NCBI GenBank assembly: GCA_963819815.1
Contig: CAWFXL010000001.1
Location: 896,001 to 960,000, forward strand
Reading direction: 5' to 3'
Length of the DNA stretch: 64,000 bases
Source: an uncultured bacterium
Lineage (GTDB): Bacteria; Babelota; Babeliae; Babelales; Babelaceae
Shown: piece after piece, positions 25,236-26,936 of the stretch
Position numbering within the stretch: position 1 is the first letter of the stretch
Layout of the letters: the number at the start of each line of letters is the position of its first letter
Made by a program: the position numbers and the translations under genes
The notes under the pieces: generated by a model
Told to the model about the DNA's origin: nothing
Databases searched by the model: none
What the model saw: the letters and a program-made list of their open reading frames with translations, nothing else

Positions 25236-26936
25236 TTATGCGCTTGGGGCAGCAATATCATGGTACTTGCTATATTTTGGATCCCAATAATAGGTTTTAA
25301 ATGCCCAGGCACCAAGTCCCACTATTCCCGTCAATGCAAGCACTTTCCCAATCTGCAATCCATCTTTGTGCTTCAGAATTTGTGGGTTCTGACCTGAAGG
25401 TAGCGGGCCATTCTGGTTTCCAGTTGATGCTGGTTTGGTGGGAGAATTAACTCCACTACCTTGGGTTCCACCGGTAGCTCCTGAAGTCGGTAATGCAGGA
25501 CTTACTGAGTTATCTATAGGAACTGGATCATCTACAGGTGCTTTCGGTACTGGTGGTCGAGAAGATGAACCAGCATTTTTATCTTTCAACGGCGGAGCTT
25601 TCGGCTGAGCGGCACCCTTACCCGGTTGCTTTTGCTGCGGTTGCTGAGGAGCTCGAGCTTCTGTGTTCGTTACATTGGTCGCTCCAGATGCTTGAGGAGC
25701 TGCCCCTACTGCTTGTTCTTTTAGAGCATTTCTTTCTTTAATTTCTCTTGTAATAGCCTCCATAGGAGTATCTTGAGAAGGAGCCTTTTCAGACAACTTT
25801 CTATTTCCAGCGGGACGCAAATTTGCACCTGCTCCTTCCTTAATTGCTTTTGTAATAGCATCTGTAGGAGATCCTTGAGAAACATTTTCATTATGAGGAA
25901 CCTTTTCAGCTAGCTTTCTATCTTTTGCAGAACGCAAGGCTGCACCTGCCTGAATGGAAGCTAGTAGCTGAGAGCGATCTTCTGGAGATGCTTGTGCGGC
26001 AGGCTTCACTACAGGTCTTGAAGGTTGTGGTGGGGGTGGGGGTGCATTCTGGACAACTGGTGCGGCTGCATTCGTGTTTTGCTGAGGTTGGCTATCATCA
26101 CCATCGTCATCATCCTCATTTGCAGAAATAGGCCGGGCACCTTGACTCGGTGTTGCAGTTGTTCGTGAATTTCCCAATGGGCGACCCGTATTTGATACAG
26201 CTCTACCAGTATCTTGAGGACTCGTTGGCGGGGCAGCATTTCTTTGCTCACCTTGACCAACCAAATTTTTGATACGACCAAATAGTGCGCCAAGCATACT
26301 TGATTCACTCAGTGCATCAGCCCCATTCGACACTCTTGGCTCTTGTGTTCCTGCTTGTCGTTCTCCGGTAGGACGCAAAGTTCTCCCATTTCTAACCTCA
26401 GAGAGCAAGTTCGAAGTAGCAGGTTTTGGAACGGCTATTTGTTCTTGTGGCGTCGAGGTCGTACTAGAAGTTGTATGAACAGAATCTGGCTGAACCACAC
26501 ATTTGTTTAAAAGAACGACCAAGGAACAATAACCCTCAGCTTCACAATCTTTGAACTCAAGCTTATTAGCAGTAGTTCTATCCACTGCTGGATGAGGATT
26601 CGCTGAAAATTTTTCATGTATGAAAGCACAGACCAGGCCGATTTTTTTCAGTGCTTCATGTAGGTTATGGTATCCTTTGTTTCTCTCTAACTCTTCTACT
26701 AATCGCAATAAGTATCGAGGTAGATCCATAACCGCAATCGTTTTTAATTTAGCTGTAAGATCTTCCCGAGAAAGATCCAATTGCATCACTGCATTGCTAC
26801 CAGACATAGCTTTATTTATTGCTGCCAATTCTTTCTTAAGATGCTCATTATTTTCTTGTGAACTGCTAGCACCATACAGTGGACATCCTATTGCCAGGAT
26901 GACTATTCCAAGATTCAGTGTATACACAAATTTCAT
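25236..26936 (-). CDS. Exported, C-terminally anchored protein with tandem WH2 actin-binding motifs and polyproline
   Basis: SNLLSEVRNGRTLRPT, DRSQLLASIQAGAALRSA, two weaker repeats, APPPPPQP, signal peptide and C-terminal transmembrane segment. Confidence 0.72.
   Translation of the reverse strand: MKFVYTLNLGIVILAIGCPLYGASSSQENNEHLKKELAAINKAMSGSNAVMQLDLSREDLTAKLKTIAVMDLPRYLLRLVEELERNKGYHNLHEALKKIGLVCAFIHEKFSANPHPAVDRTTANKLEFKDCEAEGYCSLVVLLNKCVVQPDSVHTTSSTTSTPQEQIAVPKPATSNLLSEVRNGRTLRPTGERQAGTQEPRVSNGADALSESSMLGALFGRIKNLVGQGEQRNAAPPTSPQDTGRAVSNTGRPLGNSRTTATPSQGARPISANEDDDDGDDSQPQQNTNAAAPVVQNAPPPPPQPSRPVVKPAAQASPEDRSQLLASIQAGAALRSAKDRKLAEKVPHNENVSQGSPTDAITKAIKEGAGANLRPAGNRKLSEKAPSQDTPMEAITREIKERNALKEQAVGAAPQASGATNVTNTEARAPQQPQQKQPGKGAAQPKAPPLKDKNAGSSSRPPVPKAPVDDPVPIDNSVSPALPTSGATGGTQGSGVNSPTKPASTGNQNGPLPSGQNPQILKHKDGLQIGKVLALTGIVGLGAWAFKTYYWDPKYSKYHDIAAPSA

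Follow-up and report, generated by a model that had tools for sequence, protein, structure and literature searches.

The window analyzed here is a 64,000-nucleotide stretch (positions 896,001 to 960,000 of contig CAWFXL010000001.1, assembly GCA_963819815.1) from an uncultured bacterium of the phylum Dependentiae (TM6), whose assembly measures 1.64 Mb in 2 contigs. On its minus strand, an open reading frame (ORF) without internal stop codons encodes a 566-residue protein (P0001), and a GGAGGA Shine-Dalgarno sequence, read directly from the DNA at 26943..26948 (minus strand), stands 7 nucleotides upstream of the ATG. The parts of the predicted product follow one another in the order leader, N-domain, WH2, C (connector)-like helix, acidic run, PPPPP, WH2, degenerate WH2, C-like helix, spacer, membrane helix and tail (Table 1). 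WH2-like motif 1, C-like helix 1 and an acidic run that contains no Trp make up a first unit; WH2 motif 2, its degenerate duplicate (motif 3) and the C-like helix of motif 4 make up a second. Based on the comparisons described below, the middle of the protein is best read as two units descended from a WASP-type WH2-C(-A) module, where A denotes the acidic element, that is kept intact in relatives. The claim made for the gene is modest: judged from its sequence, the product is probably an actin binder, and it is put forward as a candidate only. A first-pass annotation of this DNA had described a membrane-anchored, tandem-WH2 actin nucleator. The hydrophobic leader, helical N-domain, acidic run, polyproline, Pro-rich spacer and all four motifs that it listed are present within a few residues of where it had placed them; its motif 1 falls on residues 175-190 (26367-26414) and its motif 2 on residues 320-337. 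The product is best read as a mostly disordered protein of effector type; the AlphaFold2 model of the whole protein has a mean predicted local distance difference test score (pLDDT) of 38.

Table 1 Parts of the P0001 gene, in window coordinates with protein residue numbers, and example tails of relatives, in the coordinates of their loci
Feature	Position	Strand	Basis or remark
Whole ORF, P0001	25236..26936	-	566 residues plus stop
Leader, residues 1-24	26865..26936	-	Hydrophobic core; invariant Gly17-Cys18, lipobox-like context
Orphan all-helical N-domain, residues 25-160	26457..26864	-	Alignment columns and AlphaFold2 (low pLDDT)
WH2-like motif 1, residues 175-194	26355..26414	-	Phylum WH2 profile, 13.7 bits
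C-like amphipathic helix 1, residues 209-226	26259..26312	-	WCA profile alignment; AlphaFold2 helix 211-226; conserved in homologues
Acidic run without Trp, residues 273-283	26088..26120	-	Eight D/E residues
PPPPP, residues 299-303	26028..26042	-	Prolines largely conserved in all three homologues
WH2 motif 2, residues 318-338	25923..25985	-	Pfam-level WH2; AlphaFold2 helix 318-333
Motif 3, degenerate WH2, residues 355-378	25803..25874	-	Tandem duplicate of motif 2 unit
Motif 4, C (connector)-like helix, residues 390-409	25710..25769	-	L023 BLASTP alignment; AlphaFold2 helix 391-409
Pro/Gln/Ser-rich spacer, residues 411-520	25377..25706	-	18% Pro; predicted disordered
C-terminal hydrophobic helix, residues 527-548	25293..25358	-	Hydropathy; AlphaFold2 helix 519-550
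18-residue tail after anchor helix	25239-25292	-	ORF reading
Tail of relative L012	1354-1572	-	
Tail of relative L013	1378-1575	-	
Tail of relative L023	1366-1569	-	
Tail of relative L025	1501-1719	+	
Tail of relative L026	1486-1659	+	

WH2 domains bind actin monomers by docking in the cleft that separates actin subdomains 1 and 3. The Pfam model for this domain (PF02205) has a curated cut-off of 23.1 bits. For motif 2, the score against it is 22.7 bits (E 7.4e-5) in the whole protein, 24.0 bits (over the cut-off) when the genome is searched in six frames, and 25.5 bits as a 34-residue fragment. Motifs 1, 3 and 4, searched as fragments, give no Pfam match. The protein is thus a borderline Pfam-level WH2 protein through motif 2 only, and the hidden Markov model scan that the first-pass annotation had recommended supports motif 2, at the cut-off, and none of the other three. 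The sequence of motif 2 reads L-L-x-x-I followed by G-x-x-L-R, with S-A replacing K-V. Among 8000 scored candidates, the homologue search returned only two proteins, the metagenomic P0002, which is 52% identical, and P0003, a paralogue with 40% identity; the WH2 of P0003 has the canonical L-R-K-V and scores 23.6 bits (hmmscan) and 27.8 bits (genome search). In the three-protein alignment, the WH2 core of motif 2 and the prolines before it are invariant and the flanks diverge. Outside the N-domain and leader, this core is the best-conserved part of proteins that are otherwise 40-52% identical, which argues for selection.

A second profile was built from 25 segments, picked by regular expression at 18 loci of other genera of the phylum. 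Motif 1 scores 13.7 bits against this phylum WH2 profile, although the segment-picking pattern also fits motif 1, and motif 2 scores 11.7 bits; when the protein is shuffled 1000 times, no shuffle scores as high as 6 bits (maximum 4.2). Motif 1 reads L-L-x-x-V followed by L-R-P-T, a variant that is also found in phylum relatives. For motif 3 the score is −2.5 bits; none was reported for motif 4. The motif 3 unit is nevertheless a tandem duplicate of the motif 2 unit, with a local BLOSUM62 score of 65 that 0 of 1000 shuffles reach (maximum 41).

Comparison with other members of the phylum alters how these motifs are read. WH2 matches over the Pfam cut-off occur in 21 of 261 phylum genomes (32 at E <= 0.01) and in 0 of 14 control genomes. 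At 20 loci, 21 WH2-bearing ORFs were examined: a hydrophobic leader is present in 13 of the 15 with a complete N-terminus, and among the 19 whose C-terminus is complete, 8 finish with an acidic run that has a Trp in the last 12 residues. A profile of the WH2-connector-acidic (WCA) tail, A2, was made from an alignment of nine WH2-to-C-terminus tails of other genera. Among PDB sequences, A2 matches the N-WASP VCA chain of an Arp2/3 complex entry (6uhc_H) over positions 2-71, with an E of 7.1e-21 and 77.7 bits, and the match spans the WH2, the C helix and the acidic region. WAVE1 (chain 3p8c_D) is matched over positions 2-67 (E 4.8e-6), whereas Spire, WIP and VopL (3m1f_V, E 9.7e-4) are matched through the WH2 part only. 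Because the match to N-WASP runs across WH2, C and acidic parts, these relatives carry complete WASP-type WCA tails behind signal peptides. At E <= 1e-3, A2 matches are found in 29 of the 261 genomes; in 14 of these 29 the match starts by position 5 and reaches at least position 64, and 8 of the 14 supplied rows to the profile. Leader-bearing proteins with complete WH2-C-acidic/Trp tails are thus encoded by many Dependentiae; they lie at loci in the range L009-L027, in other phylum genomes (examples in Table 1), and are at least as interesting as the target gene. The genome of the target also encodes a third WH2 protein (G000:C1:1574592-1574651, minus strand; ORF L005 1375..2364, minus strand), which has 329 residues and scores 27.9 bits in the genome search. 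A long region rich in Pro and Ala follows its signal peptide; then come a WH2, a C-like helix and, at the end, a short acidic stretch that contains no Trp. An orthologue is present in the closest relative (L016).

The target can be aligned directly with this module. In BLASTP, a single colinear alignment of 85 residues (E 4e-7, 29/85 identical) connects it to the two-WH2 WCA protein of L023. In this alignment, motifs 2 and 3 lie opposite the first and second WH2 of the relative, respectively, and motif 4 lies opposite its C helix. Since this homology is colinear over 85 residues with a full WH2-WH2-C-A protein, chance is ruled out. A2 itself aligns to the target twice, at residues 175-225 and 320-366; with all filters off, the first of these covers positions 4-51 of the profile (WH2, linker and C helix) at 12.8 bits. 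When the three-protein alignment is compared with A2 in hhalign, the match covers residues 321-368 with a probability of 90% and an E of 1.6e-6. The first-pass annotation's arrangement of polyproline followed by WH2 is confirmed, in that PPPPP precedes a genuine WH2 within a module homologous to WASP-type modules. Its two weaker repeats exist as motifs 3 and 4; neither passes a WH2 profile, and their counterparts in the L023 relative are instead its second WH2 and its C helix. The acidic/Trp element is absent from the target, and in its place stand a spacer of ~110 residues and the membrane helix. The acidic run that is present scores −2.2 bits against the A part of A2, which is not significant. 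Because an acidic region with the conserved Trp is absent, the target is not filed as a WCA factor.

At the N-terminus, the first-pass annotation had seen a plain signal peptide. A hydrophobic leader is indeed present, but its type appears to differ. Cys18 is invariant in an L-A-x-G-C context that resembles a lipobox, Gly17-Cys18 is kept in the three homologues and in a RING-like protein, and LspA and Lgt are both encoded in the genome, with matches over their cut-offs. For these reasons the leader looks like a lipoprotein signal, an assignment by pattern in which lipidation is predicted. Only three ORFs of the genome share this leader sequence: the target, P0003 and the RING-like protein that adjoins P0003. 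P0003 has 729 residues (region G000:C1:1588328-1592031), and its 414-residue neighbor combines the same leader with a RING-like zinc finger (23.1 and 21.0 bits, below cut-off) and a similar C-terminal anchor. The combination of leader and anchor appears to be a cassette that recurs with eukaryote-type modules of different kinds.

The N-domain contains five residues that are invariant in the three-protein alignment (Cys103, His107, His115, Cys131 and Cys146). AlphaFold2 predicts it to be all-helical, with pLDDT values of 50-68 in the whole-protein model and a mean of 55 when modeled alone from an alignment of 2 rows. Among 1.84 billion representative proteins, its only relatives are P0001, P0002 and P0003. 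A fourth match, to a Cna_B repeat protein, was rejected as its score sums about 27 weak repeat matches, and a Huntingtin HEAT match (E 0.012-0.12, far below cut-off) was likewise rejected. Prediction of a homodimer from two copies of residues 25-160 gave a score of 0.03 against a mark of 0.42, which weighs neither for nor against oligomerization. At the other end of the protein, the single C-terminal transmembrane helix that had been annotated is present as one hydrophobic helix (residues ~527-548). Its Kyte-Doolittle mean over 19 residues (527-545) is 1.44, compared to 1.46 in P0002 and 1.67 in P0003. As this anchor is only moderately hydrophobic, there would be room for passage through Sec and subsequent insertion elsewhere.

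TruA and a GNAT gene flank the target gene, in a slot whose content varies. In a relative of the same genus (L064, G029:C1:700000-712000), the same TruA-GNAT slot holds a 243-residue leader-plus-anchor protein and a 510-residue leader-bearing ankyrin protein, and neither the WH2 gene nor the peptidase-like gene described below is found there. The slot is a fast-turnover effector slot. TypA, two genes from the target, is 99% identical to that of one Dependentiae metagenome-assembled genome and 81-85% identical to those of several further metagenome-assembled genomes, two of them also Dependentiae. In the closest relative, the target gene is a fragment at a contig end, syntenic with TypA. An alignment pattern search for the family in species-genome contigs gave 596 pattern matches, of which 0 were confirmed.

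The reading that is tentatively favored, at somewhat less than an even chance, is that P0001, tethered to a membrane, binds the G-actin and profilin-actin of the host and acts independently of canonical Arp2/3 activation. The protein would be exported by Sec through its lipoprotein-type leader and would then be held at a membrane facing the host cytosol, which could be the bacterial surface or a host-derived membrane entered by the moderately hydrophobic tail helix. There, the WH2 helices would bind host actin monomers and the polyproline run would recruit profilin-actin. Actin would in this way be concentrated and assembled locally, without the canonical activation of Arp2/3 that needs an acidic/Trp tail. 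We infer the export route, the final topology, the binding of actin and profilin, and any effect on polymerization. A wider and more speculative proposal, considered possible and still rather doubtful, is that Dependentiae export WASP mimics by Sec and type II secretion, not by injection, and that the target is a tethered derivative without the Arp2/3-binding tail, which assembles or captures actin at the interface of bacterium and host.

A number of observations weigh against the favored reading. In the whole protein, motif 2 stays 0.4 bits below the Pfam cut-off, P0002 is also under it (20.6 bits), and the LKK[TV] part of the WH2 reads L-R-S-A in the target. Motif 1 is missing from P0003 through a deletion and is weak, at 3.3 bits, in P0002, and motifs 3 and 4 fail both the Pfam and the phylum WH2 profiles. 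When residues 293-419 alone are searched against PDB sequences, nothing significant is found and the best WH2 match is Spire (E 0.95). Trp occurs only at residues 544 and 551, that is, in the anchor and tail. The structure models of both the whole protein and the N-domain are of low confidence. With three proteins in the family, the evidence from conservation is thin, and with this query the gene turns up in only 2 of the 41 genomes available for its taxonomic family, its own and that of the closest relative. A C-terminal membrane helix is present in 0 of the 19 WH2-bearing phylum ORFs with a complete C-terminus, so that the anchor has no precedent among functional-looking relatives. Finally, two Omp85 matches in the genome indicate a diderm envelope. 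By the textbook reading, a leader and a C-terminal stop-transfer helix in a diderm place a protein in the inner membrane, with its ectodomain in the periplasm, where it would never encounter actin.

An outer membrane, deduced from the two Omp85 proteins, would therefore lie between the anchor and the host, and the export machinery of the phylum bears on how it might be crossed. The genome contains four secretin matches over cut-off; three secretin-domain genes lie within 7.5 kb (G000:C1:1178086-1185459, minus strand) and the fourth match lies elsewhere. Passages of the TM6 genome study of Yeoh et al. report two gspD copies in TM6 genomes and outer membranes that appear degenerate (PMC4776705). 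For Babela, the sections of the genome description that deal with secretion name type II as the only secretion system detected and report signal peptides on 79 of 126 ankyrin proteins (PMC4378268). In Chromulinavorax, as described in parts of its report, signal peptides are found on 44% of coding sequences and 78% of ankyrin proteins, and the organism sheds outer-membrane vesicles and grows in the host cytoplasm (PMC6561590). In the relevant passages of both papers, the signal-peptide ankyrin proteins are thought to be secreted into the host, and the lineage is described as comprising obligate intracellular parasites of protists (PMC4378268, PMC6561590). This lifestyle agrees with the protist host that the first-pass annotation had assumed.

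Within the genome of the target, a crude count over 1160 ORFs identifies 26 that have a hydrophobic segment at the C-terminus but not mid-protein, a count for which the target itself falls below the hydrophobicity threshold. Read from the list, most of the 26 are also hydrophobic at the N-terminus. Several of them end in Ala-Ala, as do 28 of the 1160 ORFs overall. The peptidase-like neighbor of the target, described below, is built in the same way. Among 14 of them that were scanned, 6 contain ankyrin repeats over cut-off, 1 has a weak ankyrin match, 1 is RING-like below cut-off and 6 match no family. Ankyrin- and RING-type modules mainly make sense in contact with eukaryotic cytosol.

In one alternative, P0001 would be a protein of the bacterium's own envelope, lipidated or anchored in the inner membrane with a periplasmic ectodomain, and the WH2-like stretch would be a decaying effector relic or a chance helix. 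Diderm envelope genes are present, the topology of leader and C-terminal helix fits, the Pfam score is borderline and the family is very small and fast-evolving; in addition, the invariant Cys and His residues of the N-domain could form disulfides or bind metal outside the cytoplasm. The alternative is unlikely, however, as the conservation of the WH2 core argues for selection, the 85-residue homology to the L023 protein rules out chance, and ankyrin and RING-like modules occur in the same leader-anchor architecture. If the protein does reach the host, it might instead be a damper of actin assembly. An A-less WH2-C protein could sequester monomers in the manner of thymosin or WIP, or act as a competitor of the host's own WASP-family factors for actin or Arp2/3, and could thereby block phagosome maturation or host motility near the bacterium. 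Loss of the A element with retention of WH2 and C helices is the expected look of a competitor, and the same genome keeps an A-degenerate WH2 protein (L005). Yet sequestration needs neither a membrane anchor nor polyproline, and the sequence does not separate damping from assembly. Damping is very unlikely, the least probable of the explanations weighed here.

The remaining alternatives give the protein an active role in filament formation by other means. As a nucleation-promoting factor that depends on Arp2/3, similar to ActA or RickA, it would activate host Arp2/3 at the anchoring membrane through unit 1, or through the acidic run and unit 2 in an ActA-like order. The descent of the module from WH2-C-A proteins that match the N-WASP VCA, the two retained C-like helices, the eight D/E residues of the acidic run between the units, and a leader, proline-rich region and C-terminal anchor that parallel the layout of ActA all point in this direction. 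In WASP-family proteins, however, a conserved Trp is needed for Arp2/3 binding, and the acidic run of the target has none. This run does not score against the A part of A2, shrinks to four acidic residues in P0002, and lies 48 residues past C-like helix 1, far more than in relatives; direct activation of Arp2/3 is quite unlikely. A nucleator with tandem WH2 motifs, as the first-pass annotation had proposed, or an elongator of the Ena/VASP or BimA type would use profilin-actin and WH2-bound monomers, with clustered copies starting filaments or elongating them processively. Polyproline stands directly before the WH2, two more amphipathic helices follow at spacings of 30-45 residues, the conserved helical N-domain could oligomerize, and tethering to a membrane could by itself cluster copies. 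Against this, of the three motifs that lie close together just one passes a WH2 profile, and 145 residues separate it from the second credible WH2 (motif 1). Oligomerization cannot be argued from the N-domain, for which neither a relative outside the three proteins nor a confident fold was detected. With only two motifs passing a WH2 profile and at such a distance, the tandem-WH2 proposal is not supported in its original form, and nucleation or elongation of this type is decidedly improbable. The tethered binder of actin and profilin-actin, acting without canonical Arp2/3 activation, remains the favored reading.

Several neighboring features were also recorded. The gene at 23712..25169 (minus strand) encodes a 485-residue protein with a leader, a C-terminal anchor and no Pfam match. 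Its conserved Gln-x4-Cys and Gly-Gly-x-His-Trp motifs suggest a candidate cysteine peptidase, and weak atlas leads (0.80-0.83) connect it to Peptidase_C48, RickCE and ElaD. A paralogue (L004 694..2070, minus strand) and the WH2 protein have a short acidic segment in common. For Babela, a passage of the genome description mentions Ulp1-like peptidases that are circularly permuted and carry signal peptides (PMC4378268). Further along the window, 14 head-to-tail ORFs of 536-648 residues form a large tandem paralogue array (38430..63425, plus strand), and 4 of 5 scanned ORFs from this array are ankyrin-repeat proteins. In consensus scans around the target gene, promoter-like sites are no more frequent than in shuffles and terminator-like sites are about twice as frequent; both results are uninformative on expression.

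A few cultured pathogens, namely Listeria, Rickettsia, Burkholderia, Vibrio and Chlamydia, are known to mimic the actin regulators of their hosts, and the eukaryotic module they use is now seen in an uncultured phylum that parasitizes protists. The literature search, which covered main-text passages, found no publication that joins Dependentiae to WH2 or to WASP-like tails. Among the matches listed, co-mentions of Dependentiae with Arp2 and of WH2 with TM6 concern, by their titles, unrelated subjects, and no paper on WH2 in symbiont genomes treats Dependentiae by title or abstract. In portions of the main texts on Babela and Chromulinavorax, actin is mentioned only for FtsA or not at all (PMC4378268, PMC6561590). 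The first-pass annotation's remark that no such factor was described for the lineage agrees with this search of main-text passages. The target varies a theme known from other bacterial WH2 effectors, in a phylum with none described and, if the wider proposal above is true, it would be the first actin-assembly factor of the phylum. WH2/WCA mimicry would be older and wider than animal pathogens suggest. In sections of the published genome analyses, the phylum is described as having only Sec and type II export. The signal-peptide proteins of these bacteria would need an undefined route to the host cytosol, and because a WASP-type tail has no known periplasmic use, these proteins are good probes for that route. 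An informative contrast is also available within one phylum, between the complete WH2-C-A tails of some genera and the A-less, membrane-anchored version of the target.

The known systems closest to the target are the WASP-family VCA/WCA proteins (N-WASP, WAVE/Scar) and their Dependentiae mimics (L012, L013, L023, L025 and L026). Like the target, they place WH2 after polyproline and a C-like helix 15-20 residues after WH2, which is the usual spacing. They differ in having one complete unit, compared to two partial units in the target, which adds the lipobox leader, the orphan N-domain, the long spacer and the C-terminal membrane helix. To our knowledge, this mode of anchoring is not seen in bacterial actin effectors. 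Listeria ActA shares the layout of signal peptide, actin-regulating region, proline-rich region and C-terminal anchor, which keeps ActA on a surface exposed to the host cytosol, and its acidic stretch likewise precedes the actin-binding and connector elements; the two proteins are not related in sequence. ActA belongs to a monoderm and activates Arp2/3 through an acidic stretch that contains Trp, whereas the target is encoded in a genome with Omp85 and has no such Trp. Burkholderia BimA and Rickettsia RickA resemble the target as surface or secreted proteins that build host actin with WH2 and proline-rich stretches, and BimA has a C-terminal membrane anchor, as is predicted for the target. The anchor of BimA is a trimeric autotransporter beta-barrel that also oligomerizes, and RickA has a complete WCA; neither feature is present in the target. 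Finally, VopL/VopF, TARP, Spire and Cordon-bleu share with the target a proline-rich stretch and closely spaced WH2-type helices. These tandem-WH2 nucleators contain two to four WH2s that pass the profile and a known dimerization or oligomerization element, whereas in the target one of three close motifs passes.

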